Origin: a virus
Direction: 5' to 3' (one strand)
Virus record (IMG/VR): IMGVR_UViG_3300017917_001123
Span: 267,571 to 331,570 of that record
DNA length: 64,000 nucleotides
In this document: positions 745 through 62,306 of the stretch, in pieces
Layout: every line of letters begins with the position of its first letter
Numbering within the stretch: the first letter of the stretch is position 1
The notes under the pieces: model-generated
Database searches by the model: none
What the model was told of the DNA's origin: nothing
Seen by the model: only the letters and a program-made list of their open reading frames with translations
Made by a program: the position numbers and the translations under genes

Positions 745-1466
745 ACGAATCTGATAAGTTCCACAACGATTACAACCAATGGCGTGTTAATCGTGTGCGT
801 AAGATGGAACAGGTGCTAGGCAAGGAATGGTTTAAGGGCAAGCGTGTACTAGAGCTTGCCTGCGGACAAGGAAACATTAGCGCATATCTAAAAAGCCTAG
901 GAGCAGACGTAACCGCTAGCGATGCTAGGGCGCAACATTTAATACATGTTGAAAGCACGTACAATATTGATACGTTGCTTATTGATCAGGACAAGCCTTG
1001 GACATTAGATGAACACTACGATTTGATTGTACACTTTGGTGTATTATATCATTTAAAGAACTGGAAGCAGGATTTGTCCTGTGCTCTTAAACACACAGAC
1101 ATGATGTTCTTAGAAAGTGTCGTAGCAGATACAGACGATGCGTACTTTGAACATCAGCTCGCTGAAGCAGAAGAAGGCGGACAGAATGCTTTTCATGGTG
1201 TCGGTACTGTTATGAGTGCGAGTAATGTAGAGCGTGTAATAGAAGAACTGGGTTACGAGTGGATTAGGTTTGATGATCCTGATCTAAACTTACCTAATAG
1301 AAGATTGTATCAATACGATTGGACCGTTAGTAACAACATCGATGGGTACGAGTCCGCAACATCGTTTGAAGACAAGCCATTATACGGCGGCCGCCGACTG
1401 TGGCTTATTAAGAAATCTTTCTCCAACGATCGGCTAGGGCATATGAGCCTTGGTGTACGTGCATAG
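726..1466 (+). CDS. class I SAM-dependent methyltransferase
   Basis: Motif I 'VLELACGQGN' followed by an acidic residue ('DVTASD') typical of a Rossmann MTase. Ends in TAG. Confidence 0.6.
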   Translation: MYDILVNESDKFHNDYNQWRVNRVRKMEQVLGKEWFKGKRVLELACGQGNISAYLKSLGADVTASDARAQHLIHVESTYNIDTLLIDQDKPWTLDEHYDLIVHFGVLYHLKNWKQDLSCALKHTDMMFLESVVADTDDAYFEHQLAEAEEGGQNAFHGVGTVMSASNVERVIEELGYEWIRFDDPDLNLPNRRLYQYDWTVSNNIDGYESATSFEDKPLYGGRRLWLIKKSFSNDRLGHMSLGVRA

Positions 1467-2592: not shown

Positions 2593-3551
2593 GAATTCCT
2601 CTTAATACGATTACAAAGTTTGGTCAGCAGACAATGTTAGATCGCCCTTTATTCAATGTAAGTTGGATACTAGGGCGATTCTGTAATTACAAGTGTTCTT
2701 ACTGCTGGCCTTATGCTAGATCAGACAAGTTAGACTTTTTGCCTATAGAAACTTATACTAAAGTTATAGACGAAATAAAGCGGCAAGCCAGGGCGAACGG
2801 CTTCACAGAGTTTCACTGGAGTTTTAGTGGAGGCGAACCTACAGCTTTTAAACAGTTGCCAGAAATCTTTAAACACATTGAACGCGATCTTGTAAGTCCT
2901 TATCAGAGTGTTCATATGACTACTAATCTAAGCCCGGGAAGCAATTGGTGGAGAAACTGGTGCTTAATTACAAGTCCTTTACAGCGTAGAAGTATTACTG
3001 CCAGTTACCACGAAGAGTTTGCTAAAGAGCAAGAGTTTGGTGATAAGTGTCTACAGCTAATGTATGAAAGTGTTTTTGTAACAGTTAACCAAGTAATGGT
3101 TCCTGAGCGTTTCTATGAGCTGTATGAACGTTGTGCTAGACTGCGTCAGCGTGGTATCAACGTAACTCTAAAGCCACAGACAAATCCTACAGCTACAGCC
3201 GTTGTTGACGGATACACTGAAGATATGATTGCTATAATGAAGAAAGATTTTCAACAGCAGGCAAACGGAGAACAGCTACATCAAATACGACTAACTGACG
3301 GAAACAATACCTATTTTATTGATCAAGCAGAACGGTTTAATGCTTTAGGATTCAACAAGTTTAAAGGATGGAATTGCGTTGCGGGTTATCAAAGTGTTGT
3401 AATTAGAGGACAAGAAGTTAAACGTAGTCATAGTTGTCACGAAGATTCTTTAGGCACGGTTGATAATTTTACTTTGTTTAAAGAATTAAAGCCCTGTATA
3501 ACTGAGTCTTGTATGAGCTCTGCGGACAGTAAGTTACCTAAGACTAAATAG
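2583..3551 (+). CDS. radical SAM protein (with extra C-terminal Cys cluster)
   Basis: CxxxCxxC motif 'FCNYKCSYCWP'. C-terminal cysteines ('CVAGYQ...SHSCHED...KPCITESC') suggest a SPASM/twitch auxiliary cluster. Ends TAG immediately followed by TAA. Confidence 0.7.
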   Translation: MEIRIPLNTITKFGQQTMLDRPLFNVSWILGRFCNYKCSYCWPYARSDKLDFLPIETYTKVIDEIKRQARANGFTEFHWSFSGGEPTAFKQLPEIFKHIERDLVSPYQSVHMTTNLSPGSNWWRNWCLITSPLQRRSITASYHEEFAKEQEFGDKCLQLMYESVFVTVNQVMVPERFYELYERCARLRQRGINVTLKPQTNPTATAVVDGYTEDMIAIMKKDFQQQANGEQLHQIRLTDGNNTYFIDQAERFNALGFNKFKGWNCVAGYQSVVIRGQEVKRSHSCHEDSLGTVDNFTLFKELKPCITESCMSSADSKLPKTK

Positions 3552-20739: not shown

Positions 20740-21536
20740 TCCCTATCATTACAGGTTCTGACGGTTATATAGGAACCAACCTATCCCAGCTATTCAATAA
20801 GCACAATAGATCTTTTGTTGGGCTTGATCGCAAATCAGGTCCAGATCTCCTGAGTGCCGAGGGCAAGGATCTTTTTGAGGAATGTGCTAGTACAGCGGAT
20901 GTAGTTATACATCTTGCGGCTCGTCCTCGAATTCCTCCTAGCTGGGTAGATACTACTGCTTATATTCGTGATAACATTGAGCTAACAGAATATGTTGCTC
21001 GAATATGCGCCGAACAAGGCTGTCATTTAATATTTGCTAGTTCTAGCTCTGTTTACGGGAACGGAACAGGTCCTCTGAATCCCTATGCTTGGACTAAAAA
21101 AGCCGGAGAGGACATTATTCGTATCTACGGCGAAAAAGGACTAAGTTACACAATTTGTCGCTTGTTTACTACCTTTGGCAATAACGGACCCTTGGTTTTA
21201 GATAAGTGGCTCAAGCAAAGCCTAGCCGGAGAACCTATAACACTCTACGGCGATGGCACACAAAGTAGAGATTTTATTCATGTAGAGGATGTAGCAGATG
21301 CTCTTTACTCTGCTTATCTTGCCAAATTAGACAAAGAAACGCTAGATGTAGGCACAGGCAAAGCCCACAAACTACAGGATATTGCGGACTGGTACGGGAA
21401 CGAAATTATTCGTGGTCCTGCTCAAGAGGGCTATGCTCACAGCACTCAAGCGAAAGCCCAGCGAACAATGGAATTGCTCAACTGGGCTCCTAAACGTCCA
21501 GTAATTAGTTGGATCCGTTCTGGCCTAGATATGTAG
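20736..21536 (+). CDS. NAD-dependent epimerase/dehydratase (SDR family)
   Basis: N-terminal 'ITGSDGYIG' GxxGxxG and 'YAWTKK' YxxxK catalytic motif. Ends in TAG. Confidence 0.65.
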
Positions 21537-22038
21537 CCCAACTTGGGTGCGCCATGTGAAATGGCAACTTCTTACGTTGTTCAATAAGTTCCCAATAAGT
21601 AGGCTTATAAGGCTTCTTCTTAGGCACGATTTTCTTGTTGTTACCCTTGTTTGCGTTACATGGAGAACAGGCAGTCGTTGCGTTTTCAAAGGTAGACTTA
21701 CCACCGTGCGATGTTGGAACCACGTGGTCTAGGGTAGCAGTCTTTTTATTGACTTCGGTACCGCAGTACTGGCATTTAAATCCGTCGCGAAGAAATACGT
21801 TCTGCTTAGAGTAGCGAACGCCTGTTTTCGGCTTCATGTATTCTTTTACCATAATAACAGCCGGTACAGGAGTAGACCAGCGAGCTGATCTAACGACCCA
21901 GTCGTCGTGCCATTCCAATACAATAGCTTTGTCCAAAACCATGTATCGAATAGCTTCCTGCCATGTAATTACACTCAACGGAAGCATTGAAACTGGGCTT
22001 CCGTCTGTGTTTAAAACTAAAACGTCTGACATAATCAC
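21505..22038 (-). CDS. HNH homing endonuclease
   Basis: 'CQYCGTE...LDHVVPTSHGGKSTFENATTACSPCNANKG' is a canonical HNH motif. Free-standing, opposite strand, overlaps the 3' end of the epimerase gene. Confidence 0.8.
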   Translation of the reverse strand: MIMSDVLVLNTDGSPVSMLPLSVITWQEAIRYMVLDKAIVLEWHDDWVVRSARWSTPVPAVIMVKEYMKPKTGVRYSKQNVFLRDGFKCQYCGTEVNKKTATLDHVVPTSHGGKSTFENATTACSPCNANKGNNKKIVPKKKPYKPTYWELIEQRKKLPFHMAHPSWATYLGQNGSN

Positions 22039-24145: not shown

Positions 24146-24165
24146 AAACTTTTTAGGATAGATAT

Positions 24166-27100: not shown

Positions 27101-28041
27101 TAAACGGTAATACAACAGCATTCCCGATTAAAGTTCTAAGTACAGGATCTGTTTCAACAAGTTCCAACTCTGGTGCTCTTGTTGTTGCGGGCGGTATGGG
27201 TGTAACTGGTGCTGTTAATATTTCTGGTAGTTTAACTTTAAACGGCGCGGCAATTACAACATCTACTGTGTTTAACGGTGGAACAATTACCGGAGCATTG
27301 TTTGTTAATAATGCTACTGCTAGTACAACTCCGACAACTGGTGCGTTACGTGTAGCAGGCGGAGCAGGTATTCAAGGAGATGTTAACGTAGGTGGAAGTA
27401 TCTTCATCAACGGTGTTCAGTTATCAACAAGTACAATCTTTAACGGCGGTACTATTACTGGAGCATTAACAGTTAATAATGCCACTGATGCTACTTCAAC
27501 CGGAACTGGTGCTATTATTACTACAGGTGGCGTAGGTATTGGTAAGAACTTGTACGTCGGCGGAAGTATTTTTGAAGTAAACGTTGCGTCAGGAACTACA
27601 TCGTTGGTTGGCAATGGACCTTCATTTAGTGCCTATAGGTCGACCACCCAGGCAGTTGCCTCCGGAGCAACACCAGTTAAGATTACTTACAACACAGAAG
27701 AATTTGATACAGATGGCGCATACGACAACGTTTCAAATTTCCGCTTCCAACCTGTAGTTGCTGGATATTATAGAGTTAGTGCGTCAATACAGCAAGGCGG
27801 TACAAGTGCTACTGGCTATTCAGCAATATCAATTTACAAAAACGGTTCGGCATTTAAACACGGTAATCGCTTGCCAAACAACGCTAACTCGGTTGTTGTA
27901 CAAGTGACTGCTCTAATTCAAATGAACGGCACTACTGATTACTTAGAAATCTTTTACGCACAAACAACTGGCGCAAGTATGACTATTGCGGCAAGCCAGC
28001 AATACAATTATTTCCAAGCAGAATTTGTAAGAGGTCTGTAA
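24166..28041 (+). CDS. large tail fibre protein
   Basis: 1291 aa with the same 'LGG(I/V)xxGxGLSIDxNG' repeat family and extreme Gly/Thr/Asn/Ser content. Confidence 0.65.
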   Translation: MGIKISQLPTLTLGNIRDANQLPVVDTTTLGTKKVTIGDIKTYATQGLSALAFSGSYADLVNVPTTFPIPTASPTTLGGIRVGGFLNIDQNGVLSADPGFYNINVGNVQINSANGALNVIAGNNVTIDADDLTNTIIINSSGGSGGGSGNVGKANTGTLAVYFNTNTVTGTNITIEGGSITTDGVVTAAGFVGERLTATSIVTTVGDLILAPSANVSVTGKRIVNLSTPVGSNDAATKAYVDAQTSRAFGKVSVPGQGLVSATSGTDTLNFAAGNNVTLSTNPATKTVTIAVNNTLSFALLPATTSSIGGVIIGSGLSIDQNGVVTASAQALTTATTSTLGGIIIGDGLSIDGNGRLSSAAQFVLNTASSTVVGGVKIGFGLQIDSQGTISVPTQVLTTATKFLLGGVKIGNSIAAAVDGTIDVNVGQLTPATTSSLGVVKPGYGLSVRPDGSLDLGVDGNFTITGNLSVAGVISATNIFTTGTAVTIISSANDLQLRAAGQVITNTTLYVNTSTPATSTSTGALQVWGGIGVGKNIITGEPSIIDGVYISGSRTAGGVYNIALGSGALGSNAGASYLTAVGYNALQLANVSENSAFGYNAGNSLTNGSKNTFIGQAAGSGLASGTFNSVLGHQSYTGQGASSYNTILGSNINANANQVQSYNTFIGYNIANITNRPGSYNIAIGGNNLQATTGTSNIVIGYGAGSGLTTASNQVIIGGYNGTAIATQTGYISLADGIGNLRAQWDNKGQVTFFNTATFFATQNATNSTNSGALIVAGGAGIGQDLYVGGTIYSQGSPVITQAYLGTPISTITAGTDTKVVTAGSAVTIWNTSTLQSITSRGNTTSNPIRITSQASTTGTSTGALILDGGLGLAGSIQAGGTINAGADSTASSIAETVGLFDRGRRVMTQAILTGDLGIEVTSSSNTATVMAYNIKNTGVRFITPGDGLAMLVNGTSAVANGTGSVTLSVTAGLEQVSVNGNTTAFPIKVLSTGSVSTSSNSGALVVAGGMGVTGAVNISGSLTLNGAAITTSTVFNGGTITGALFVNNATASTTPTTGALRVAGGAGIQGDVNVGGSIFINGVQLSTSTIFNGGTITGALTVNNATDATSTGTGAIITTGGVGIGKNLYVGGSIFEVNVASGTTSLVGNGPSFSAYRSTTQAVASGATPVKITYNTEEFDTDGAYDNVSNFRFQPVVAGYYRVSASIQQGGTSATGYSAISIYKNGSAFKHGNRLPNNANSVVVQVTALIQMNGTTDYLEIFYAQTTGASMTIAASQQYNYFQAEFVRGL

Positions 28042-28042
28042 T

Positions 28043-29611
28043 ATGAAGTATAGATATTACGTAGTTGTAAATGATCCGCAGTTTAAGGCTGCGGTTCATA
28101 CAGAATTAGTCAGTGACAGAGGAACAGAATTTGTCCCTTCAAGAAGAGTATCGGCAGACAATCCAATGCGCCATAGCGAGTATAATGGTTGTTATATGTT
28201 AACTCCTGAAGAAGCTCAACAACTACAAAACGACTCTAGAGTAAATGCTGTAGAGCGTGTTCCTGAAGATATTGGGATCAGTTTAAAACCACTGTCTGTT
28301 ATGACAGCACAATATAATAAGACAACCGCTATAGCAAACACTCACAGAAATTGGGGGTTAGTTAGATCTTCTAGCAGAGCAGAGCCTTACGGTGCGGCAA
28401 CTAATTTAACTACTTTCAATTACAACCTAGATGGAACAGGAGTAGACATTGTTATTATGGATAGTGGTGTTTTAAAATACCATCCAGAAATGGCAAAACG
28501 TTCAGATGGTACTGGCGGAACACGATATGTAGACATTAACTGGAGTCAGTTTGGTATCATAGCAAATAACGGTTCAGGTAGCTGGCAAGGGGATATTGAC
28601 GGTCACGGAAGTCACTGTGCCGGCATTGCCGCAGGTATCACCTGCGGATGGGCCAAAGGCGCACAAGTCTATGGATTTAATATTTTAGATCCTAACAATG
28701 CTACAACCTACGTTAGTCCGTTGCTGGCCTTCCAAACAGTACGTGCTTGGCATAATGCCAAACCTATTGATCCTAATACAGGTTATAAACGCCCGACTGT
28801 TGTTTCAATGAGTTTTGGTTACGAACTGACCTACACTGACATGGTTACAACAACATGGCGCGGCACAACATACAATACAACTGGCCCGGCAAGCGCATAC
28901 GGTCAAGTTAGTGCCGATGGTAGTGCTCCTCTAGCAGATAGCGACTTGTCAACACACGGATATCGATCACCTTCCTTAGAAGCAGAAATACAAAGCTGTA
29001 TTGATGCTGGCATTATTATGATTGGTGCGGCAGGTAATCAAGCAATAAAAGTAGATGTTCCAGGAGGAATCGACTACGATAACTACTATACCGACTCGTT
29101 TGGCGATCGTTGGTATTATCATAGAGGTACAACTCCTAGCGCAACATCAAATGTCGTTTGCGTAGGATCAATTAGCTATTCAACTCCAGAACATAAAGTA
29201 AGTTATTCAAATACTGGGCCTAGAGTTGATGTGTTTGCTCCGGGACTTGCTATTGCTAGTGCCTACATTAATCAAACAGAGGGAGGCAATCCTGCGGTCA
29301 TAGATCCACGCAGTACAGCAAGCACCTCATCTGTTACAACATCGTTCTACTTACAAAAGATTGGCGGCACGAGTATGGCATGTCCACAGGTTGCTGGAGT
29401 TGTTGCTTGCTTGTTACAAAGTCGTCCTTGGTACACACAGTGGCAAGTATCGCAATGGGTTAAAGAAAATGCCACAACGGGGTTATTAGACGAAACTTTT
29501 TACGGCGGAGCAGGCTATACACAATACGGCGGACTACAGGGGGCAGGGAATAGAATTTTATTCCAGCCATTTAATGATCCGAATCCTTGGTCAATAACAA
29601 GCAACTCTTAA
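28043..29611 (+). CDS. subtilisin-like serine protease (peptidase S8)
   Basis: Catalytic triad motifs in order: Asp 'VDIVIMDSGV', His 'HGSHCAGIAAG', Ser 'GGTSMACPQVAGVVA'. Confidence 0.8.
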   Translation: MKYRYYVVVNDPQFKAAVHTELVSDRGTEFVPSRRVSADNPMRHSEYNGCYMLTPEEAQQLQNDSRVNAVERVPEDIGISLKPLSVMTAQYNKTTAIANTHRNWGLVRSSSRAEPYGAATNLTTFNYNLDGTGVDIVIMDSGVLKYHPEMAKRSDGTGGTRYVDINWSQFGIIANNGSGSWQGDIDGHGSHCAGIAAGITCGWAKGAQVYGFNILDPNNATTYVSPLLAFQTVRAWHNAKPIDPNTGYKRPTVVSMSFGYELTYTDMVTTTWRGTTYNTTGPASAYGQVSADGSAPLADSDLSTHGYRSPSLEAEIQSCIDAGIIMIGAAGNQAIKVDVPGGIDYDNYYTDSFGDRWYYHRGTTPSATSNVVCVGSISYSTPEHKVSYSNTGPRVDVFAPGLAIASAYINQTEGGNPAVIDPRSTASTSSVTTSFYLQKIGGTSMACPQVAGVVACLLQSRPWYTQWQVSQWVKENATTGLLDETFYGGAGYTQYGGLQGAGNRILFQPFNDPNPWSITSNS

Positions 29612-29623
29612 TTTGGAAAAAAT

Positions 29624-32374
29624 ATGTCAGCAATTAAATTTAGTCAATTAAAACTTTTAACAAACCCAACAGGTGAAATATTTTTTCCTGTAGTTTATAA
29701 TGGAACAAACTGGAAACTAACTTTAGATTCGATAAAAGGATCGTTCGCTCCATCATGGACTGATCTTCAGAACAAACCTGTGTTCCATGAAACAGCAATC
29801 AGTGGAGATTATACAAGACTAAACAACTTACCTGCTATTCCTTCTAATACAAGCCAACTAACTAACGGCGCAGGATTTATCACCACAGCTAGTCTAACAT
29901 GGAACAATATCACTGGGAAGCCTAATTTATTCAGCGGCGTGTATAATGACCTAAGTGGCAAACCTAATTTATTCAGCGGTAGCTATAACGATTTAACGGA
30001 CAAGCCTCAGTTGTTTGACGGCAATTACAATTCATTATCGAACAGACCTGAGATACCATCAAACACTAATCAACTAGCCAACGGTGCTGGATTTATTACA
30101 ACTGCTAGCATCACATGGGAATCTCTACAAAGTAGTGTTCCTCTAGCAATGGTTGCCAAAACCGGTAGTTATACTGACTTAGGAAATAAACCAGATCAAG
30201 CATTAAACACTAATAGCAATGTTACTTTCTCTAGTATAACATTCCCAGATGCTAGTGTACAATCGACGGCGTTTATTCCGTTAACTTTTATTACTCCCGA
30301 TGACATCTCATTATCGGGCATTACAACAATCGCACTTACTGGTACTGGAGTAACTGCTTCTGCAGTAGGCAATGCTATTACACTAGATATATCAGGTGGC
30401 GGCAGTGGAAATGTAGGAGACTTTACATTTGTAGGTGGAACAGCAAGTCTTCCTCTAGGAAGCACAATGACTCTTCAAACCTACCAAAACGGTGGAAACA
30501 GAGAGTCTGTGTTAACATTGGCTCCTATTGGAGATTCTGCTCTTGATGTCGGTGGAGGATTAAGAGTAAGAACTGCCTACGGTACAGGTTTTGAAAAGTC
30601 TTGGACATTTAATACAGATGGTAGTATAACATTTCCAGATGCTACATTACAATCAACCGCGTTTGTCGGTACCGGCAATATCCAATTTAGAAATGATACA
30701 TTAAACAATCTTAATGGTGTTATCATTACTAATGCTGATCAAACCACTACTGCTACTGCTCAGATAAGTGTTCCTGCCAATGGCTCTGGAAGTATACTAA
30801 TCACTAATAATAACACCAGTTGGGGATTTGAAAGTAACGGCAATCTATCACTCCCAGGAGATTTAACATTACCTACCGGATGGAGGATTTCATCTAATCA
30901 AATCAACACAGGACTCGGAACCACAGTAACTTCTATTTCATTGATTACAGAGAGTCTATCTGTGGACCGTCGTTTAGAAATATATTCTGAAAGTAATCGA
31001 CTACATTTAGATTCACACAACCCAACTACTGAATTATACATAGGTGATAATTCACAGTTTATCGCTTTGCAACAAAGTGGCGAGATATTTGTCAGTGCTA
31101 CTGGTGGCTTAAGCCTTCATGGTGGCGGGGCAAACAGTCTCGCAAGAGTTGTTATACCCGACCAAGAAGATGCACCGTTTACACCTCTTTATGTAATAAA
31201 CACAGGAACTCCTGGAGTTATAATACAAGCTGGCGCAACTCCGCGGAATTGGCAGTTCCGTGGTAGCGACGGTGGGTTAGTATTCCCAGACAATACCGTT
31301 CAGACTACTGCTTGGTTAGGTACCGCGGACGTAGTTAGAAATGTCACCAGCCTTGGTGGCACGGTCAGTATTCAAACAGCCAGTCAGCAGGGTGATCCTG
31401 ATAAAACTTGGTTGTTTAAGCACGATGGCGCCGGTGCATTAGTTCTAACAGATGGTAGTACCATTAGAGCAAAACACGGATTTAACATTTTAGCCACTGC
31501 GCCAGAATTTGTTAACTTCACGAGCATAAGAAACTTTGATTCTCTGTCATTCCTTGATCTCACTAACATCGTAATAATAAATCCAACAGCTAGTATTTTA
31601 GCCGCCATTGATCCCTCAACTTCCACCTGCGTAGCAGTAACCGGCACTACAGTCAGACTTATGCTTGATAACGGTGTTGTACAAAACTACCAGTTGACAT
31701 CAACATTTGTTGGCGAAGAAAATAATCCGTTTTATGGGTTACCAGTATGGACAGCTACTATTCCTAACAGCGGTATTGCATCAACTTCAATCAAAGAAGT
31801 TAGTTTTGGATACTCTGCCAACTGGAGGTTTGATACAGCCGGCCGCATAACTTTCCCCGATGGTACAACATCAACTGGTGCTACTATATTTGCTAATTCT
31901 TCTAGTTATAAGATTCAAACAATATCGTTTGCCGGCAGTCCTAGCAATTTAGTTTCTACATATGAATTTGGTGTAGCTAGTATAACTATCCCCGGAAATG
32001 GAATAATTTACAATGAAGGCCAATCAGGATATTGGGCACTTGATGGTGTTAACGGAGAGTTTTCATTCCCTAACAATTCAAGAATTAGTTACGGTTTAAA
32101 TAATGCTGGACTAACTGAAGACGACTTAAAAATTCAAGCCATTAACACAGGTAATGTAGTTGTATCCGCCAACGGAGCTGACTGGATATTCGGAACCGAC
32201 GGCAGTCTAACACTCCCAGACTCTACTGTACAAACTACCGCATGGACTACAACATCTAACTATACTCCCGCAACACCCAGTGACTGGTCAGGAACACCTC
32301 CTACTACCATAGCAGAAGCATTAGATAGGTTAGCCGCAAGGATTAAATTAATTGACGGCGGCATCGGAGCATAA
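29624..32374 (+). CDS. tail fibre protein with tandem 14-aa repeats
   Basis: 916 aa. 'KPNLFSGxYNDLS' tandem repeats and duplicated 'SNTxQLxNGAGFITTAS(L/I)TW' blocks. Confidence 0.6.
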   Translation: MSAIKFSQLKLLTNPTGEIFFPVVYNGTNWKLTLDSIKGSFAPSWTDLQNKPVFHETAISGDYTRLNNLPAIPSNTSQLTNGAGFITTASLTWNNITGKPNLFSGVYNDLSGKPNLFSGSYNDLTDKPQLFDGNYNSLSNRPEIPSNTNQLANGAGFITTASITWESLQSSVPLAMVAKTGSYTDLGNKPDQALNTNSNVTFSSITFPDASVQSTAFIPLTFITPDDISLSGITTIALTGTGVTASAVGNAITLDISGGGSGNVGDFTFVGGTASLPLGSTMTLQTYQNGGNRESVLTLAPIGDSALDVGGGLRVRTAYGTGFEKSWTFNTDGSITFPDATLQSTAFVGTGNIQFRNDTLNNLNGVIITNADQTTTATAQISVPANGSGSILITNNNTSWGFESNGNLSLPGDLTLPTGWRISSNQINTGLGTTVTSISLITESLSVDRRLEIYSESNRLHLDSHNPTTELYIGDNSQFIALQQSGEIFVSATGGLSLHGGGANSLARVVIPDQEDAPFTPLYVINTGTPGVIIQAGATPRNWQFRGSDGGLVFPDNTVQTTAWLGTADVVRNVTSLGGTVSIQTASQQGDPDKTWLFKHDGAGALVLTDGSTIRAKHGFNILATAPEFVNFTSIRNFDSLSFLDLTNIVIINPTASILAAIDPSTSTCVAVTGTTVRLMLDNGVVQNYQLTSTFVGEENNPFYGLPVWTATIPNSGIASTSIKEVSFGYSANWRFDTAGRITFPDGTTSTGATIFANSSSYKIQTISFAGSPSNLVSTYEFGVASITIPGNGIIYNEGQSGYWALDGVNGEFSFPNNSRISYGLNNAGLTEDDLKIQAINTGNVVVSANGADWIFGTDGSLTLPDSTVQTTAWTTTSNYTPATPSDWSGTPPTTIAEALDRLAARIKLIDGGIGA
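29918..30043 (+). repeat. 3 x 42-nt tandem repeat inside fibre gene
   Basis: Units 29918-29959, 29960-30001 and 30002-30043 (the third is degenerate). Each encodes 'KPNLFSG(V/S)YNDL(S/T)(G/D)'. Confidence 0.7.
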
Positions 32375-45747: not shown

Positions 45748-48102
45748 ATGATCACAGTTGTTAAACGCAGTGGAGAAAAAGTACCACTAGACATTAGCAA
45801 AATACAGAGACAGGTAGCATACGGGTGTAAGGGGATAGATGGAGTTAGTCCATCGATGATTGAGATCAAAGCCCAGATCGAATTACACGACGGAATGTCA
45901 ACAGAGACCATCGACGAGCTGTTGTTAAAGGCCATGGTTAACCTGATTGACGAAACAGAAAATCCAGAAATCAATCACACAAATTATCAATATGTAGCAG
46001 GCCGTCAAAAGGTTAGTATGCTACGTAAAGAAGTCTATGGCAAATATACGCCACCACCTCTCTACGAGATTGTTAAAAGAAACGTAGAACTAGGAATGTA
46101 CACACCAGAACTATTAGACTGGTACACAAAAGAAGAATGGGATATTATTGATCTTTTCATTGATCATGCTAAAGATGAAAATTACACCTATGCGGCTATT
46201 GCTCAACTAGCAGAAAAATATCTAGTACAAAATAGGGCAACAGGCAAGATATACGAAACTCCACAGGTGCGTTATGCTGTAGCTGCCGCTACTGCTTTCC
46301 ATAACGAACCAAAAGATAAAAGATTAAAATATGTTAAAGAATATTACGAGTGTGCATCTGATGGTCACTTTACTTTGGCTACTCCTGTACTTGCTGGCCT
46401 CGGTACTCCTACCAAGCAGTTCAGTAGTTGTGTTCTTATTAGTTCTGACGATACACTTGACTCTATTTTTGCCGCAGGCGAAATGATGGCCAAGTATGCT
46501 AGCAAACGTGCTGGCATTGGCTTAGAGATTGGTCGTATTCGCCCACTAGGTGCTCCTATTCGTAACGGAGAGATCAAACATACCGGTCTAATTCCATTTA
46601 TGAAAAAATGGTTTGCTGACTTGCGTAGCTGTTCACAGGGCGGTATTCGTAACGCATCATGTACAGTTACATTTCCTATCTGGCACGCTCAGTTCGAAGA
46701 CCTAATCGTTCTAAAGAATAATCAGGGAACAGAAGAAACTCGTGTTCGTCAGATGGACTACTCAGTTGTAGTTAATGCCATGTTCTGGCGCCGTTATAAG
46801 AATGGCGAAAACATTACATTGTTTGACCCAAGTGAAGTACCGGACTTATACGAAGCATTTTACCGTAGCACAAGCGAGTTTGAGAAGTTATACTTACAGT
46901 ATGAACAAGACAAGACAAAGAAGAAAAAAGTCCTTACGGCCAACCAAGTGTTTAAGGACGGCATACTTAAAGAGCGTACGGATACTGGAAGAATCTACCT
47001 TGTCTTCATCGACAACGTCATCAACCAAGGCCCGTTCGATACAACTGTTGACCCGATATATCAATCAAATCTCTGCCAAGAAATTCTCTTGCCCACAAGA
47101 CCTTTTCAACGCATTGAAGACCCGACGGGGAGAATTGCTCTTTGCACTCTTGGCTCAATCAACTGGGGAAGTTTCAGAAACCCACAAGAGATGAGAAAGG
47201 CTTGCCGTGTACTTGTACGTAGTCTAAGTAACTTATTAAATTACCAAGACTTCTTAAGTATTCAGAGTAAGTTAGCCAACGAAGACTTTGAACCACTAGG
47301 TGTTGGAATTACCAATTTAGCATACTGGCATGCCAAGAGACATTTCAAATATGGTGAAGCAGAATCACTAGCAGAAGTTAAGCGTTGGATGGAACATCAG
47401 GCATATTTCTTAACAGAGATGTCAGTGGAACTTGCCCAAGAACGCGGCGCATGTAAGCGTAGCGAATTTACCTATTATGGCAAAGGTGTGTTTCCTTGGG
47501 AACGCCGTGCTAAGGGTGTAAATGAACTAACGGATTTTACCCCAAGCACAAACCTAGATTGGGAAGGACTACGTGCTAGATTAAAACAGTATGGTATCCG
47601 TAACGCTACACTAATGGCAGTTGCTCCTGTTGAGTCCAGTTCAGTTGTACTTAACAGTACTAACGGCATTGAAATGCCGATGGAAATGATTTCAGTAAAA
47701 GAATCTAAAGCAGGATCATTTGTACAGGTTGTACCAGAATACCGTCGTCTAAAGAATCGCTATCAGTTAATGTGGGATCAAACAAACTGCGAAGATTACT
47801 TAAAGACTGCCGCGGTATTAGCCGTATATATCGACCAAAGTTTATCTACCAATACATTCTATAATCCAGCACATTTCCCAGGCGGAAAGGTTCCGGGTAC
47901 TTTGGTTGCCAAGAACTTAATGTTGGCTTACAAATGGGGCCTAAAGACTATATACTATAGTTTAATTAATAAGGTAGGAGCAAAGGTTAGTGTTACGGGC
48001 ACTAATACACAAACTAACGGCGCCCACGATGTTCCTGCGTTAGCCGGTGAACCTATTACAGTATATGAAGATGACGCAGACTGCGAGGCATGTAAACTAT
48101 GA
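45748..48102 (+). CDS. nrdA: ribonucleoside-diphosphate reductase alpha subunit (class Ia)
   Basis: N-terminal ATP-cone ('VVKRSGEKVPLDISKIQ'), 784 aa. C-terminal 'CEAC' thiol pair. Overlaps nrdB by 4 nt. Confidence 0.9.
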   Translation: MITVVKRSGEKVPLDISKIQRQVAYGCKGIDGVSPSMIEIKAQIELHDGMSTETIDELLLKAMVNLIDETENPEINHTNYQYVAGRQKVSMLRKEVYGKYTPPPLYEIVKRNVELGMYTPELLDWYTKEEWDIIDLFIDHAKDENYTYAAIAQLAEKYLVQNRATGKIYETPQVRYAVAAATAFHNEPKDKRLKYVKEYYECASDGHFTLATPVLAGLGTPTKQFSSCVLISSDDTLDSIFAAGEMMAKYASKRAGIGLEIGRIRPLGAPIRNGEIKHTGLIPFMKKWFADLRSCSQGGIRNASCTVTFPIWHAQFEDLIVLKNNQGTEETRVRQMDYSVVVNAMFWRRYKNGENITLFDPSEVPDLYEAFYRSTSEFEKLYLQYEQDKTKKKKVLTANQVFKDGILKERTDTGRIYLVFIDNVINQGPFDTTVDPIYQSNLCQEILLPTRPFQRIEDPTGRIALCTLGSINWGSFRNPQEMRKACRVLVRSLSNLLNYQDFLSIQSKLANEDFEPLGVGITNLAYWHAKRHFKYGEAESLAEVKRWMEHQAYFLTEMSVELAQERGACKRSEFTYYGKGVFPWERRAKGVNELTDFTPSTNLDWEGLRARLKQYGIRNATLMAVAPVESSSVVLNSTNGIEMPMEMISVKESKAGSFVQVVPEYRRLKNRYQLMWDQTNCEDYLKTAAVLAVYIDQSLSTNTFYNPAHFPGGKVPGTLVAKNLMLAYKWGLKTIYYSLINKVGAKVSVTGTNTQTNGAHDVPALAGEPITVYEDDADCEACKL

Positions 48103-49199
48103 GTAAACAACAATACGATTTTTCTAAACCAACAAACTATCTAAAGCGCCATATGTTTCTGGATCCAGCAGGTCCTGTTACAGTCCAGCGTTTTGAAGAA
48201 GTTAAGTATCCTAAAGTCCAAAAGTACGAAGAATTAGCACGTGGCTTCTTTTGGGTTCCAGAAGAAATTAGTCTTACCAAAGATAAAATTGATCACAAGG
48301 AAGCCAGTGAAGCGGTAAAACATATCTTTACCAGCAACCTATTGCGTCAAACAGCCCTTGACTCAATTCAAGGCCGAGCACCGTTCCAGGTATTTGGTCC
48401 TGTGACAAGTATTCCAGAACTTGAAGCTCTAGCATTAACTTGGAGTTTCTTTGAAACATCGATTCACAGTAAGAGCTACAGTCATATCATTCGTAACGTC
48501 TACGGTGTACCAAAAGAAGAATTTAACAAGATTCATGACACACAAGAAATTGTGGGAATGGCAAGTCACGTTGGCAAGTATTACGAAGATTTACACATTC
48601 TAAACATTCGTAAAGAATTAGGCGAGACAATTCCTCTCAAGGAACATAAGAAGGCAATTTGGTTAGCCCTACATGCTTCTTATGCCCTAGAAGCTCTACG
48701 CTTCATGGTATCCTTTGCTACAAGCCTAGCAATGGTAGAAAATAAAATCTATATCGGTAATGGTAATATCATTAGTCTTATTCTTCAAGACGAATTATTA
48801 CACACCGAGTGGACAGCCTGGCTAATTAACAATGTAACTAAAGACGATCCTGACTTTGTACCAATTGCGGAAGAATGTAAGGATGAAGTCTACGCAATGT
48901 ATTTGGATGTTATCCGTGAAGAAAAAGAATGGGCAGATTACCTATTCAAGAAAGGCGTTGTTATTGGCCTTAACGCTAACATCTTAAAAGACTTTGTAGA
49001 CTACACAGCTTACACTCGTCTAAAAGAAGTCGGTATCAAGTATCTTGAGGATCATCCGAAGACTACACCTATTCCGTGGTTTAATAAGCACGTGAATATT
49101 AATAAAAAACAAACGGCATTACAGGAAAATGAAAGTACTAACTATGTTATCGGTGTTATGAGTGACGCAGTTAGTTACGAAGAACTTCCTGATCTATAA
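48099..49199 (+). CDS. nrdB: ribonucleoside-diphosphate reductase beta subunit
   Basis: Di-iron ligand motifs 'FFETSIHSKSY' and 'QDELLHTEW' (ExxH x2), and 'LHASYALEALRF'. Confidence 0.85.
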   Translation: MSKQQYDFSKPTNYLKRHMFLDPAGPVTVQRFEEVKYPKVQKYEELARGFFWVPEEISLTKDKIDHKEASEAVKHIFTSNLLRQTALDSIQGRAPFQVFGPVTSIPELEALALTWSFFETSIHSKSYSHIIRNVYGVPKEEFNKIHDTQEIVGMASHVGKYYEDLHILNIRKELGETIPLKEHKKAIWLALHASYALEALRFMVSFATSLAMVENKIYIGNGNIISLILQDELLHTEWTAWLINNVTKDDPDFVPIAEECKDEVYAMYLDVIREEKEWADYLFKKGVVIGLNANILKDFVDYTAYTRLKEVGIKYLEDHPKTTPIPWFNKHVNINKKQTALQENESTNYVIGVMSDAVSYEELPDL

Positions 49200-52392: not shown

Positions 52393-52469
52393 ATATAAAC
52401 TTTGAAAGGACTACATCATGGCATATAGAGCTAAAAATGGTAGCGTAAAGGCAGCGGCACGTAGAGCAT

Positions 52470-52557
52470 TACGTCGTCGACAGAAATAATTTTATTGCTG
52501 TATGAAGCAAACCCAAAAGGGTTCTGGACGCGGGTTCGACTCCCGCCAGGTCCACCA
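52470..52557 (+). ncRNA. ssrA: tmRNA acceptor piece (3' tRNA-like half, ends CCA) of a permuted two-piece ssrA; 5' boundary approximate
   Basis: T-arm 'GCGGG-TTCGACT-CCCGC' (52530-52546), 3' acceptor strand 'CAGGTCC' + A + CCA (52547-52557). No matching 5' acceptor strand upstream, so this is not a tRNA. Confidence 0.65.
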
Positions 52558-52645
52558 AAAGAGGATTGTATGAACGAAGAAGTAACTAAATGGATGCTGG
52601 GCGTGGGCCTAGTTCTTTTAATGTTCTTTTTAGTCCTTTTTTGAT

Positions 52646-52839
52646 GGGCCTGTACTGGATTTCGACAGGGTCAAGAGTAGGCGAGTGGACAGCACGGTAG
52701 GCGATGACCGTAAATCAAGCAAAACAAAATAGACGCAAACGATGAAGTTTACGCATTGGCGGCCTAATAACGGCTTCCTAGGGTAGGAAATACCTCGTAA
52801 CAGAAAATACCAAAAGGCTCTTCGGAGCCTTTTTCTTTG
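52646..52839 (+). ncRNA. ssrA: tmRNA coding piece (5' acceptor strand, tag reading frame ANDEVYALAA, terminator)
   Basis: 5' 'GGGCCTGTACTGGATTTCGACAGGG' matches the tmRNA 5' consensus (E. coli GGGGCUGAUUCUGGAUUCGACGGG). GGGCCUG pairs with CAGGUCC of the upstream piece. 'UAG-AC-GCA AAC GAU GAA GUU UAC GCA UUG GCG GCC UAA UAA' at 52730-52770 parallels the E. coli resume region and tag. Confidence 0.75.
52813..52839 (+). terminator. rho-independent terminator of the tmRNA transcript
   Basis: AGGCTC-ttcg-GAGCCT followed by TTTTTCTTT. Confidence 0.65.
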
Positions 52840-52853
52840 AGTCAAAAAATGTC

Positions 52854-52882
52854 TTGACTCTTCAGTGAAAACACTATATAAT
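52854..52882 (+). promoter_or_regulatory. sigma70-type promoter TTGACT-17-TATAAT with overlapping palindrome
   Basis: -35 at 52854-52859, -10 at 52877-52882. A 7-bp inverted repeat gagtcaa-N8-ttgactc (52839-52860) overlaps the -35. Confidence 0.5.
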
Positions 52883-52959: not shown

Positions 52960-53424
52960 ATGAGAAAATTCGCAATCGCATCAATCTTGGCTTTGGCCGC
53001 AGTTTCAGCTTCGGCTGTAGAACTTGGCGTTACCGCAACACGTGGTGACACCACAGGTGATACTCGCAACTACGCAGGTGTTACCCTTGGTCAAAGTTTT
53101 GGCAAGCTAAATGCAACTGCTGGCTTTGAGCGTTCAACTGTTGGCGCACAGGGCAATCAGAACCGCTGGAGCTTGGTTGGTGGATACGACATTGCCAAGG
53201 TTGGTCCAGTTACTTTTACTCCTAAACTTGGTTATGCTTACTTAGACAATCAGACTCCGGGTGTTGCCAGCGGCAATGCTTATACAGTTGGTCTAGGCGC
53301 ATCATACGCTCTCACTAAGCAAGTTAGCCTTACCGCAGACTATGCTTATCAAAAGGCCTTTGAAACAAAGGTTGAGCAGTTTGATGGCAACCGAGTTACA
53401 TTGGGTGCTAAGTACCGCTTCTAA
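52960..53424 (+). CDS. small outer-membrane beta-barrel protein (OmpX/Ail/OmpA-like OMP)
   Basis: Signal peptide 'MRKFAIASILALAAVSASAVE', alternating amphipathic beta-strands, and a C-terminal aromatic 'YRF' terminal signature. Confidence 0.6.
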   Translation: MRKFAIASILALAAVSASAVELGVTATRGDTTGDTRNYAGVTLGQSFGKLNATAGFERSTVGAQGNQNRWSLVGGYDIAKVGPVTFTPKLGYAYLDNQTPGVASGNAYTVGLGASYALTKQVSLTADYAYQKAFETKVEQFDGNRVTLGAKYRF

Positions 53425-55565: not shown

Positions 55566-56105
55566 ATGAAAACCGTTGGACAAAAATTAGATCCGTTTAT
55601 CGTAACTGGTGTTAAGCCAGGTCAACCTGAAGATGCTTTCTTCGACATCACCGAGGAATCATTCCCAGGTAAGTGGAAAGTAATCGTTTACTATCCAAAG
55701 GACTTTACATTCGTTTGCCCAACTGAAATTGTTGCCTACGATAAGTTGGCACAGGATTTCGCAGACCGCGACGCTGTATTGCTAACTGGTTCAACAGACA
55801 ACGAGTTCTGTAAGGTAGCTTGGCAGAAGGCACACCCAGATCTACAAAAGATCACTCACACTCAGTTCGCTGATACACAGCGTGGTGAGAACAGCCTAAT
55901 CGAGCAACTAGGTGTATTCTATGCTCCAGCAGGTGCGGCTCTTCGTGCTACATTCATTGTTGATCCTAACAACGAAATCCAGCACGTTACAGTCAACAAC
56001 TTGAACGTTGGTCGTAGCCCAGAGGAAACACTTCGTGTTCTTGATGCGCTACAAACTGGCGAGCTTTGCGCTTGTAACCGTGCTGTAGGCGGCGAAACAC
56101 TTTAA
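55566..56105 (+). CDS. peroxiredoxin (AhpC/Prx family)
   Basis: Peroxidatic Cys motif 'DFTFVCPTEI'. C-terminal 'GELCACN' is a candidate resolving Cys. Confidence 0.85.
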   Translation: MKTVGQKLDPFIVTGVKPGQPEDAFFDITEESFPGKWKVIVYYPKDFTFVCPTEIVAYDKLAQDFADRDAVLLTGSTDNEFCKVAWQKAHPDLQKITHTQFADTQRGENSLIEQLGVFYAPAGAALRATFIVDPNNEIQHVTVNNLNVGRSPEETLRVLDALQTGELCACNRAVGGETL

Positions 56106-56320: not shown

Positions 56321-56827
56321 ATGGCTTTTATTGAATCAATTAAACAAGCCTTGCCAGAGTACGCAAAGGATACCAAACTTAACTTGGATGCTGTCCTTTT
56401 GCGTAGCACATTGGATGCCGATGTGGCTATGGGCTGTGCGGTTGCCGCATTGGCCGCAACTGGCAATGGAAAGGTACTCGCAGTAATGTTGGCAGATGCT
56501 CCGGTACATGCCGAATCTGCGATGTGTGCCGCAAGCATTATGGCACAGAACAATGTATGGTATCCATATGTTGAAATGGCAGATGATGAGCAACTCAAAG
56601 GCTTGCCAGCACAGTTACGCATGAACGCAATCGCAAGTCATGGCGGAACTACAAAGGCAAACTTTGAAGCATTTAGTTTGGCGGCTAGTATTGTTGGCAA
56701 ATGTCATTTCTGTGTTAAGGCACACTATGACACATTGAAGCAAGAAGGCTACACAGTAGAACAGCTTCGTGACATTGGCCGTATTGCTAGTGTTATGAAC
56801 GCAGTAGCCAAAGTTTTAAACAGTTAA
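56321..56827 (+). CDS. ahpD: alkylhydroperoxidase AhpD-like (carboxymuconolactone decarboxylase family)
   Basis: 'GKCHFCVKAH' CxxC(H) active-site motif of AhpD. Confidence 0.7.
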   Translation: MAFIESIKQALPEYAKDTKLNLDAVLLRSTLDADVAMGCAVAALAATGNGKVLAVMLADAPVHAESAMCAASIMAQNNVWYPYVEMADDEQLKGLPAQLRMNAIASHGGTTKANFEAFSLAASIVGKCHFCVKAHYDTLKQEGYTVEQLRDIGRIASVMNAVAKVLNS

Positions 56828-56970: not shown

Positions 56971-59148
56971 ATGCAACTTTTGAACGCTGTCCAAAACGAA
57001 GCTATTTTGAGCAACGTTGGCGAAATTGGTGAGTTTCGTATCCGCAACTCTGCCAAAGCCTTTAACATCTTGTCCAGCGGTTTGTACGCAAACAAGATTA
57101 AGGCAATCGTTCGCGAATTGAGCTGTAACGCAGTTGACTCGCATACTGCCGCTGGTAAGTCAGACGTTCCGTTTGATGTTCATCTTCCTTCACAATTCGA
57201 ACCTTGGTTTGCTATTCGCGACTACGGTACTGGACTAAGCCATGAACAAGTTACTAACATCTATACGACTTATTTTGAGTCCACTAAGACTGCTTCAAAT
57301 GATTTCATTGGTGCTTTGGGTCTTGGCTCTAAGTCTCCTTTCAGCTACACTGACAATTTCACCGTAACCGCTATCCAAAACGGTCGCAAGGGTATCTACT
57401 CTGCTTTCATTAACGAAGCAGGTGTGCCTAGCATCGCATTGATGATGGAAGAAGCTACAGACGAAGCTAACGGTGTTGAAGTTAAGTTCTCTGTGAACGA
57501 ACGCTGGGACTTTGACAAGTTCCGCCAAGAAGCTCGTTCAGTCTACAAGTGGTTCAAGCAACAGCCCAATGTTATCGGTGTCAGCGACTTCAAGATCGAA
57601 GAAGTTGACTACGAAGACATGAACATTGTTCCTGGAGTTCACAGCCGTCAGCGCGGTTACGGCCATTCGGTTGCCGTTATGGGTAATATTGCTTACCCTA
57701 TCGAAATTCCTAACGCTGACCAAAGCCTCGGTGCTCTGCGTAAACTGTTGAGCTGTGGTCTTGTTATGGAGTTCAAAATTGGTGAACTGGACTTCCAAGC
57801 AAGCCGCGAAGGTTTGAGCTACATTCCTCAGACCATCGCTAGCATTAAGGCTAAGTTGGAAGAACTGAACGGTGCTTTGGCCGGAAAGTTGGCTGAAGAA
57901 GCAGATGCTATTACTAACCAGTGGGAAAAGGCTTTGTTCCTGTCCACTCGTGCTGATAAGGATCTGTGGTCTGCGGCTACTCGTAAGTACATCGCTGACA
58001 CTAAGTTTGAGCTGATCGAAGATCGTTCTGGCTATCTGCGTACTAAGGCATTTGGTCTTAAGACTGAAGATCTCCAAAAGGACTACAACATTATCCTTCG
58101 TGGCTTTAGCAAAGGTCGCGGATCTGTTACTTGTTCTAACATGACTGCTGGTCGTGAATACGACTATCACAAAAAGGACGCTAACGGTCATTCGCTGTCT
58201 TGGACTGAGTGGCGCATGAGCATCAGCAACGGTGTTCAGTTTGTTGTAAACGATACCAAAGTTGGTGCTACCGAACGTGCTAAGAACCACTGGCGCAAGT
58301 GTAAGCAGGACGACCTGCCGCACCAAAGCCATGTGTATGTTGTCGAGCCGTTTGACCGCACTAAGCCGATGAAGACCAAGGAGTTTTTTGAGTTGATCAA
58401 GAATCCTCCGGAGTGCCAAATCCGTTTGGCAAGCTCGCTGATTGAGAAGGAACGTGCCCAAGGTACTAGCCTGAAGAACGTTACTATCCTTAAGCTGGCT
58501 CCTCGTGGCTACGGCGGTTACTATCGTGAACGTGAAATGGTTTGGAAGGACGCAGGTAAGGCTGATCAGTTTGATCAGACCAAAACTTACTACTACATTC
58601 CGTTGAGCGGTTTCGAAATGAACAGTTCTTGTGGTTACACTTCTGGTAAAGAATTGTGGACTGAACTCAAAGAAAGTAAGATGGGTGTTTGCCCAGAAAC
58701 TATCTACGGTGTTCGCAAGTCGGACATTGAGTTTATCCGTACACAAGCTAACTGGGTTAATTTGGAAAAGCATATCAAGGAAACTTTGGAAAAAGTAACC
58801 GAACAAGATATGGTGAAATTTGCTGTTAGCCTACTTGACAATTCCAATGTTGCCAAGTACAATAGTAGCATTGTAAACGGTATTTCAAACCCGAATAGCC
58901 CTTACGTGGTCTTTGTGAATAAACTCAAGGACGTCCAAGCAGAGAGCTTTAACGAACATTACGTCAAGCGTCTGTTTAGTCGTTTCAAGATTCAAGCGCA
59001 CGACCCGTCTGCTATCGCTGAGAAGTTCCGTAAGGAATGTAACGATGTTATCAGTCGTTATCCGTTGATCGACTACGTGCCTAGTAGTAAAGCTACCCAA
59101 GCCCTGGTTGATTACATTAATATGGTTGACACACAGAAAGGTGTTTAA
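56971..59148 (+). CDS. rIIA: rIIA protein (membrane-associated, GHKL-ATPase-like N-terminus)
   Basis: '[30 protein letters not shown]' and '[27 protein letters not shown]' closely match T4 rIIA ('[30 protein letters not shown]', '[27 protein letters not shown]'). Confidence 0.85.
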   Translation: [725 protein letters not shown]

Positions 59149-59149
59149 A

Positions 59150-59917
59150 ATGAGCTATCCGTTTTTGATTCAAGGTAAGAACATTGTTGTCGTTATCGGC
59201 AATAACAGTCATACCATCAGTTCTACTCATATCAGCTATGAGAAGATCAAAGAGGCTATTAAGGCCAACGATTGGGATACTGTAAAGGATCTCATTGAGC
59301 CTCGTAAGGTTGTGCTGAACTACGGTGCTGGTAACATCGCTATCCAAGGTGATAAGATGTTCTGGAAGGGCACCGAGTTCCATAACACTTTGGCCGCCCG
59401 CATTGTTGAGATGTACCAAGAAGGCTTCCCGATTGAGCCAATGGTTAACTTCATGGAAAACTTGATGACTAACCCTAGTAAGCGAGCCGTCGATGAACTG
59501 TACAAGTTCCTCGAAAAGGGTAACCTGCCGATTACTTCGGACGGTCACTTCCTGGCTTACAAGAAAGTCCGTGAAGACTATTTGGACTGCCACAGTGGTA
59601 CTATGGACAATAGTGTCGGTAAGATTGTCGAAATGGAACGTAACCAAGTCGATGACGACAAGAATAACACTTGTTCTACCGGTCTCCACTTCTGTAGCAA
59701 GGAGTACTTGAACCACTTTGGTGGAGCTCGTACTATGATCCTTAAGATCAACCCTCGCGATGTAGTTTCTATTCCTAGCGACTACAATGCAACCAAGGGT
59801 CGTGCTTGCCGCTACGAAGTGGTTGGCGAAGTTGGTGTTTCGGTTGAAGAAGCAGAAGCGGCATTCACTGCTCCTGTCCAAGACTGGAATGTCAATAACC
59901 CGAGTGACATGGAATGA
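59150..59917 (+). CDS. rIIB: rIIB protein
   Basis: 'FMENLMTNPSKRAVDELYKFL...DGHFLAYKKVREDYLDCHSGTMDNSVGKIVEM...TCSTGLHFCSKEY...INPRDVVSIPSDYN' parallels T4 rIIB ('FLENLLENPSQKAVSRLFDFL...DGYFYAWKVVRSNYFDCHSNTFDNSPGKVVKM...TCSRGLHVCSKSY...VHPRDVVSIPIDYN'). Start taken at the ATG right after the rIIA stop. Confidence 0.8.
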   Translation: MSYPFLIQGKNIVVVIGNNSHTISSTHISYEKIKEAIKANDWDTVKDLIEPRKVVLNYGAGNIAIQGDKMFWKGTEFHNTLAARIVEMYQEGFPIEPMVNFMENLMTNPSKRAVDELYKFLEKGNLPITSDGHFLAYKKVREDYLDCHSGTMDNSVGKIVEMERNQVDDDKNNTCSTGLHFCSKEYLNHFGGARTMILKINPRDVVSIPSDYNATKGRACRYEVVGEVGVSVEEAEAAFTAPVQDWNVNNPSDME

Positions 59918-62230: not shown

Positions 62231-62306
62231 GCGTCTGTAGCTAAGTGGCATAGCAGGAGCCTCTAAAACTCTGAATCGCGGGTTCGATTCCCGCCAGACG
62301 CACCAA
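62231..62306 (+). tRNA. tRNA with anticodon loop CU-CUA-AA (putative amber suppressor tRNA-Sup(CUA))
   Basis: Full cloverleaf by hand: acceptor gcgtctg/cagacgc, D-arm gcta-agtggca-tagc, anticodon stem ggagc/actct (one C-A mismatch at 31-39), loop ctctaaa, 5-nt variable loop, T-arm gcggg-ttcgatt-cccgc, discriminator A, encoded CCA. Confidence 0.7.

Follow-up and report, generated by a model that had tools for sequence, protein, structure and literature searches.

The single tRNA gene of the viral DNA stretch analysed here (64,000 nucleotides; hereafter the window) is an intact gene under selection, carries the anticodon CUA and, judged from its sequence, almost certainly reads UAG. Expression of the tRNA, its charging and actual suppression at amber codons are presumed to follow in the infected cell. 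The window tRNA is not an oddity but belongs to a large family of tRNAs confined to viral sequences, and it is a new case of the already published orphan amber suppressors of standard-code phages. The reading favoured here, held with reasonable though far from full confidence, is that of a functional phage amber suppressor the benefit of which is general and not specific to any one gene.

The tRNA and its viral relatives

The tRNA gene and the parts of it that determine its decoding were located as follows:

62231..62305, + strand: tRNA gene of the amber suppressor type, 75 nt, CCA encoded (ARAGORN, Rfam, cloverleaf, family covariation)
62263..62265, + strand: anticodon CTA (C34 U35 A36) (ARAGORN, sequence, invariance in 67 distinct family members)
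62261-62267, + strand: 7-nt anticodon loop CUCUAAA (read from the sequence)
62260 and 62268, + strand: C31·A39, the non-Watson-Crick pair next to the anticodon loop and a characteristic trait of the family (flagged 'v' by Rfam)

ARAGORN placed the anticodon CTA at gene position 33 of this, the sole tRNA of the 64-kb window. The score with the Rfam model RF00005 was 65.1 bits (gathering score 29; E = 7e-12), and the alignment spanned model positions 1-71 of 71 with the posterior probability '*' everywhere. Together with the direct reading of the sequence these results confirmed the complete class-I tRNA with CUA in the right register that had been claimed in the preliminary description, except that the gene ends at 62305 and not at 62306.

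The cloverleaf read from the sequence and from the ARAGORN drawing has stems of 7, 4, 5 and 5 bp, with C31·A39 as the sole exception to the pairing. The acceptor stem GCGUCUG/CAGACGC consists of seven Watson-Crick pairs and is followed by U8 A9, a 4-bp D stem (GCUA/UAGC) and the D loop AGUGGCA with G18 G19. The anticodon stem is GGAG(C)/(A)CUCU, the loop-proximal pair being the C31·A39 mismatch, and the loop reads C32 U33 C34 U35 A36 A37 A38, thus including the features expected of an amber suppressor: CUA at 34-36, a 7-nt loop, U33 and a purine at 37. The variable loop has five nucleotides (GAAUC), the T arm is GCGGG-UUCGAUU-CCCGC, and the 3' end is formed by the discriminator A73 and the encoded CCA. 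Of the commonly conserved positions, U8, A14, G18 G19, U33, G53-U54-U55-C56, A58 and C61 are all present.

The designation 'tRNA-Pyl' is merely the name that ARAGORN gives to any CUA anticodon. In tRNA-Pyl the anticodon stem has 6 bp, the variable loop 3 nt, the small D loop lacks G18 G19 and a single base separates the acceptor and D stems. The window tRNA has a 5-bp (effectively 4-bp) anticodon stem, a 5-nt variable loop, G18 G19 in its D loop and two bases between the acceptor and D stems, and a tRNA-Pyl identity was rejected.

The gene is flanked by small ORFs on the same strand. The upstream TAA ends at 62230, directly before the tRNA, and the next ATG is at 62318, 12 nt past it. Scans for promoters and terminators around the gene produced counts no higher than in shuffled sequence, and the tRNA is probably cut from a polycistronic transcript. 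For the upstream ORF, an exact-protein look-up gave no match.

The 17-nt anticodon arm of the window tRNA, AGGAGCCTCTAAAACTC, was present in 59 contigs of IMG/VR, many of which measure 100-395 kb, and in 54 of the 59 ARAGORN identified the tRNA(CUA), represented by 39 distinct sequences. The same 17-mer occurred 13 times in bacterial and archaeal genomes totalling 596 Gb, none of these in a tRNA. Because this first set had been chosen via the anticodon arm, the search was repeated with the T arm and the 3' acceptor strand only. This search produced 41 further tRNAs, which had different anticodon stems and all had CUA, and it also drew host-type tRNA-Arg(CCG) at prophage ends. The family comprises 67 distinct CUA tRNAs in 97 loci, including those of two cultured jumbo phages of Xanthomonas, XacN1 and Xoo-sp13. 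No match in IMG/VR was obtained for the exact T-arm and acceptor sequence of the window tRNA, nor any in metagenome contigs for the exact tRNA.

In an alignment of 41 distinct members, standard pairs filled 92.6% of the cells compared to 33-44% in slid controls, and 14 pairs were changed on both sides; none of 500 shuffles reached the observed values. The covariation was strong in the acceptor, D and T stems. Also the tRNA of the closest syntenic relative (L036), the adjoining SPFH-type gene of which is 94% identical to that of the window at the protein level, departs from the window tRNA in the acceptor and T stems, where the changes are compensatory. CUA, A37 and A38 were invariant in all 67 distinct members, whereas G1-C2-G3 with A73 was found in 55 and an encoded CCA in 64 of them. 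The run A36-A37-A38 forms the MiaA motif that tRNAs for U-starting codons typically have.

Position 31:39 was non-Watson-Crick in 60 of the 67 CUA tRNAs but only in 11 of the 176 other tRNAs of the same loci. Among the 27 members without the 17-mer arm, most of which came from the search not using the anticodon arm, 20 had a non-Watson-Crick 31:39 (C·A in ten, A·C in eight, and C·C and U·C in one each). C·A and A·C replace one another, which suggests that selection favours this pair in particular, and C31·A39 could weaken decoding. Better stop-codon reading has been linked to opening of the top anticodon-stem pair (27:43) in tRNAs with a 4-bp anticodon stem (PMC13092985 and work cited there). 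In these tRNAs, as in the CUA family, one stem pair is systematically unpaired in a stop reader, but they have 27:43 open and are often near-cognate, whereas the CUA tRNAs have C·A or A·C at 31:39 and are fully cognate. The parallel provides only a lead, because the pair concerned is here the bottom and not the top one.

Among cultured phages, blastn found 82-84% identity to the window tRNA over about 60 nt in the tRNA(CUA) of XacN1 (AP018399) and Xoo-sp13 (MN047793), and the anticodon arm (A/G)GAGC-CUCUAAA-ACUC(C/U) with C31·A39 is common to both and the window. Like the window phage, XacN1 is a large standard-code phage with a class-I tRNA(CUA) and a permuted tmRNA on the same strand. XacN1, however, has two tandem CUA copies in its 66-kb terminal repeat, among 26 other tRNAs, while in the 64 kb of the window the single copy is the only tRNA, and the comparison of rIIA indicates that the two phages are only distantly related. 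The GenBank record of Xoo-sp13 does not include its tRNA(CUA) (L074 1496-1571).

Genetic code and amber stops

The window represents a large tailed phage. Matches to PHROGs and Pfam identified rIIA (56971-59148) and rIIB (59150-59917), the class I RNR subunits (45748-49199) together with ThyX, an ATP-dependent DNA ligase (18370-19659), and tail fibre or spike proteins as well as virion proteins. Four consecutive large proteins with repeated Thr/Gly/Ser motifs (585, 1291, 522 and 916 aa; 22388-32374) have the highest coding scores of the window and are probably tail fibres. Just upstream of rIIA lie the genes of an AhpC/peroxiredoxin (55566-56105) and a CMD (AhpD-like) protein (56321-56827). 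For rIIA only distant hits were obtained, the best match in a cultured phage being that of the Ralstonia jumbo phage RsoM2USA with 27% identity, and neither the tRNA region nor a 499-aa structural protein had a match among cultured phages in near and protein-level searches.

A crude gene call produced 80 genes, which take up 91% of the window and end in TAA (58), TGA (19) or TAG (three), TAG thus being the rarest stop. The large majority of the genes end in TAA or TGA as had been noted earlier, though the share is ~95% (77 of the 80 crude calls) and not about 90%. Reading TAG as sense did not lengthen the ORFs of the window more than reading TGA or TAA as sense did; the coverage was 0.91 with standard translation and 0.90 when TAG was made a sense codon. 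None of the window genes was split by TAG. The phage therefore uses the standard code, in agreement with the earlier statement that the genome is not globally recoded, and a TAG-recoded (code 15) phage was rejected. One property of code-15 phages, a phage-encoded suppressor tRNA cognate to TAG, is nevertheless found in the window.

The three TAG stops of the window are the following:

1464..1466, + strand: TAG stop of the methyltransferase gene 726-1466 (Pfam); readthrough adds 31 codons, antisense to 1408-2022(-)
3549..3551, + strand: TAG stop of the radical SAM gene 2583-3551, directly followed by TAA (TAGTAA) (Pfam); readthrough adds 0 codons
21534..21536, + strand: TAG stop of the epimerase gene 20736-21536 (Pfam); readthrough adds 16 codons, antisense to 21505-22038(-)

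All three stops had been listed in the preliminary description, and its assignments of the genes were upheld by Pfam; the next in-frame TAA of the epimerase is however 16 and not 18 codons away. The readthrough frame of the methyltransferase closes at another TAG. By Pfam, the gene 1408-2022(-) encodes a 2OG-Fe(II) oxygenase and the gene 21505-22038(-) an HNH endonuclease. The convergent 3' overlaps measure 59 nt between methyltransferase and oxygenase (1408-1466) and 32 nt between epimerase and HNH endonuclease (21505-21536). All three TAG-terminated genes are situated in a cluster of bacterial-type enzymes at 1-22000, which includes the methyltransferase, the oxygenase, the radical SAM protein, a carbamoyltransferase (5053-6528, - strand), a tryptophan-halogenase-like protein (16109-17359) and the NAD epimerase. 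Recent acquisition from a host with other stop-codon usage would fit this distribution.

In genes of at least 100 aa, TAG formed 7.0% of the stops in the carrier loci, 7.5% in the ligase-relative loci, 5.2% in the rIIA relatives and 4.5% in the window. In the CUA-tRNA loci, with L045 left out, the next in-frame TAA or TGA was found at a median distance of 21 codons after TAG stops (n = 67), and at 12 and 14 codons after TAA and TGA stops, respectively. The difference was significant (Mann-Whitney p = 0.007), but opposite in direction to that predicted for back-up stops. As TAG is not depleted and back-up stops are not enriched, the loci bear no genomic footprint of leaky UAG termination. Also the TAGTAA of the radical SAM gene, which had been taken for a back-up stop, falls outside any pattern, because there is no back-up enrichment after TAG across the family, the next stop of the TAG genes being farther and not nearer.

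Screening 1.7 Mb of related loci for in-frame TAG yielded 67 candidates. Almost every one was a conserved antisense frame, an artefact that arises because CTA Leu codons read TAG on the opposite strand, and the candidates of one further locus (L176) were discarded as overlapping tRNA genes. The only candidate to survive the filtering was the DNA ligase of a 9.4-kb contig (L040), which has a CUA tRNA with the acceptor stem of the window tRNA and a ligase 63% identical to that of the window. This ligase is interrupted by a single in-frame TAG (6795-6797), situated 2.2 kb upstream of the CUA tRNA of the contig, at a site that is Lys in 76 of the 82 ligase orthologues and AAG in a near-identical metagenome contig (L272). 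As a control, another ligase orthologue (L233) was found to have an in-frame TAA (about 6856) at a conserved Glu. No in-frame stops were present in 80 NrdA and 79 NrdB orthologues (90,435 codons), and in all ~240 ligase and RNR orthologues there was one in-frame TAG, one TAA and no TGA. The TAG of L040 is equally compatible with suppression and insertion of Lys and with a sequence error or a defective variant. The check for in-frame TAG followed by extended coding, which had been proposed for the complete genome, thus found none in the window and this one singleton in the related loci.

According to one alternative, the tRNA is a stepping stone to TAG recoding (code 15), or a remnant of it, and neutralises TAG nonsense mutations. 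Borges et al. reported suppressor tRNAs mainly from recoded phages and considered a standard-code relative with a suppressor a possible precursor of a code change, proposing a route via such relatives (bioRxiv 10.1101/2021.08.26.457843). Recoded phages (crAss-like, Lak and others) have, as does the window, a phage tRNA cognate to the stop codon, which is presumably charged by the host. The TAG-recoded Lak megaphages also have a related tRNA: the tRNA(UUA) of the Prevotella phage Lak-B1 (MK250020; L271 294-366) has an almost identical D arm as well as A73 and A31·C39, and this likeness in sequence hints at a common origin of the suppressors of recoded and standard-code phages. The variable loop of the Lak-B1 tRNA also resembles that of the CUA family. 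The rarity of TAG in the window and the replacement of a conserved Lys by TAG in the L040 ligase would likewise accord with such a step. However, recoded phages show many in-frame TAG in their late genes and a low code-11 coding density, neither of which is seen in the window or its relatives. Of the 71 loci tested for TAG recoding, L045 alone looked recoded, and the body of its tRNA is different; in conserved genes in-frame TAG was no commoner than TAA, and TAG stops were not depleted in comparison to related loci. The buffering of nonsense mutations would also appear too weak a force to act across many diverged lineages, and this alternative is judged unlikely. If mere buffering nevertheless were the true function, the tRNA would represent the first step on the proposed route to stop-codon recoding.

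Another alternative, the programmed readthrough or C-terminal extension put forward in the preliminary description, supposes that the tRNA extends or completes particular TAG-bearing phage proteins, either in the window or beyond it. The conservation of the tRNA requires some selective benefit, the visible 64 kb may belong to a genome several times larger (related contigs reach 395 kb), and the L040 ligase is broken by its single TAG close to a CUA tRNA. The genes of the window gave a different picture, the possible tails being of 31, 0 and 16 codons only, two of them antisense to convergent genes. The orthologues of these genes end in any of the three stops (TGA nine, TAG eight and TAA six in the epimerase; TAA six, TGA four and TAG one in the radical SAM gene), and none of the families with at least four diverged members was consistently TAG-terminated. 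The sole family with TAG in five of five members consisted of contigs 97-100% identical and is probably an antisense ORF. Furthermore, the L040 TAG is a singleton with AAG in the near-identical contig, and the in-frame TAA of the other ligase orthologue has no matching suppressor. Whole-genome checks of published phages have not revealed targets either. In XacN1, which has two CUA suppressors, all 18 amber stops were read through in silico without a target being found (Yoshikawa et al. 2018; PMC5852040), and none was found among the 12 TAG-terminated genes of the standard-code Stenotrophomonas siphophage Summit, which has a predicted amber suppressor (PMC9022506). Summit is a 96-kb siphophage of 58.5% GC and is here likened to the window by its published description and not by tRNA sequence. 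Programmed readthrough is thus considered quite improbable.

Linkage to a permuted tmRNA and the presumed role of the suppressor

The window contains also a tmRNA on the strand of the tRNA:

52447..52858, + strand: permuted (two-piece) tmRNA, tag ANDEVYALAA followed by two stops (Rfam, ARAGORN)

It obtained 152.6 bits with the Rfam model beta_tmRNA and 132.8 bits with tmRNA_permuted, and it is situated 9.4 kb upstream of the CUA tRNA. Directly after the tmRNA there is a gene for a small outer-membrane beta-barrel or porin-like protein (52960-53424), which points to a Gram-negative host.

In the few kb fetched per locus, a tmRNA was present on the same strand in 25 of the 97 CUA-tRNA loci, and 24 of these tmRNAs were permuted. 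Either gene may come first, the spacing ranges from as little as 16 nt (L071) and 28 nt (L049) to the distance seen in the window, and the tags are varied (e.g. ANDSQFALAA and ANDDSFDFAALSFTGNTVGGRVALAA). In 80 ligase-centred loci of the same broad clade no credible tmRNA was found. Of the 97 loci, 77 had no tRNA other than the CUA tRNA, and the tRNA and the tmRNA are often the sole tRNA-like genes of the region. The positional linkage is thus real, and a functional one would be suggested by it; a tmRNA may also be nearby merely from the clustering of tRNA-like genes. Co-variation between the T arms was rejected as a sign of linkage, the T arm of the tmRNA being almost constant while that of the tRNA varies, and the near-identity of the two T arms in the window is coincidental. 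The permuted tmRNA of XacN1 (L072 4066-4486), about 1 kb downstream of its tRNA-Sup genes, is missing from the GenBank record, and the XacN1 paper is silent on a tmRNA (PMC5852040).

Since the code is standard and no gene in the 64-kb window needs the tRNA, the benefit of the suppressor would be general and not gene-specific. Once released from the polycistronic transcript, the tRNA would probably be charged by a host aminoacyl-tRNA synthetase and would then, wherever a UAG is reached during infection, compete with release factor 1. The partial readthrough that may result would be tolerable to the phage, because few of the phage genes end in TAG.

The CUA tRNA and the two-piece tmRNA may also act together, as a small module altering termination and ribosome rescue. 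In its full form, this would be a conserved two-gene module rewiring termination in the host cell: the suppressor would read through UAG-ended messages, mostly those of the host, the phage tmRNA would deal with the resulting stalled or non-stop ribosomes, and the conserved C·A or A·C at 31:39 would tune the competition with release factor 1. The full form is offered as a tentative and rather unlikely extension of the general reading. It would mean that the two genes serve host takeover or anti-defence at stop codons, and neither codon supply nor recoding.

It is very unlikely that the tRNA is not a translational suppressor at all but instead occupies host anticodon nucleases or modification enzymes as their decoy or substrate, marks the operon or the tmRNA for processing, or is decaying, as might be thought from the failure to find a target, the unusual 31:39 mismatch in the anticodon stem and the tRNAs directly adjoining the tmRNA in some relatives, because the 92.6% pairing with compensatory changes, the invariant CUA-A37-A38 and the encoded CCA argue against decay, and a decoy would be expected to retain the anticodon of the sense-codon tRNA that the nuclease targets.

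For the general amber suppressor preferred here, why standard-code phages keep such tRNAs is a question that has stood since the descriptions of XacN1 (2018) and Summit (2022), and the invariant CUA-A37-A38, the C·A or A·C at 31:39 and the frequent linkage to tmRNA are features which make it testable. Action on host UAG stops, or action together with the tmRNA, would, if true, constitute a new kind of translational takeover. For annotators and gene callers, a tRNA of this kind is not evidence of an alternative code.

Amino-acid identity

The preliminary description derived the tRNA from a Gln/Lys/Glu-type tRNA. Of these Lys is plausible, whereas C32 and A38 match neither the Gln (U32, U38) nor the Glu (C38) tRNA of E. 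coli. By the E. coli identity rules, G1-C72 with A73 and C2-G71 would count against GlnRS, and U35 with A73 would favour LysRS. The short variable loop speaks against Tyr, Ser and classical Leu. Ala identity was rejected, as position 3:70 is G3-C70.

Comparison to ~175 other phage tRNAs, by overall similarity or by that of the 'body', gave the best values of 0.70-0.78 to Arg, Met, Leu, Phe and Gly tRNAs, and no paralogue clearly parental to the CUA tRNA was found in the tRNA-rich relatives. Two phage tRNA-Lys(UUU) have GCGCCAG as their acceptor stem, as does one member of the family, which is a weak indication. The position of the L040 TAG at a conserved Lys is compatible with Lys, whereas against it the phages of the Lak relative have been reported to read TAG as Gln (bioRxiv 10.1101/2021.08.26.457843). 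As a rough estimate, Lys and Gln are equally possible as the amino acid inserted, each falling short of an even chance, and some other amino acid is slightly less so.

The two 'tRNA-Sup' genes of XacN1 (L072 2912-3070) are alike in all parts except the acceptor stem and the discriminator (A73 in one and G73 in the other), and the pair could insert two different amino acids at UAG. Two CUA tRNAs per phage were found also in L089, L099 and L162. In three other loci (L017, L050 and L056) the tRNA-Leu(CAA) and tRNA-Leu(UAG) are of only 77 nt (L017 2966-3042 and 5245-5321), a 5-nt variable loop apparently replacing the long class-II arm.
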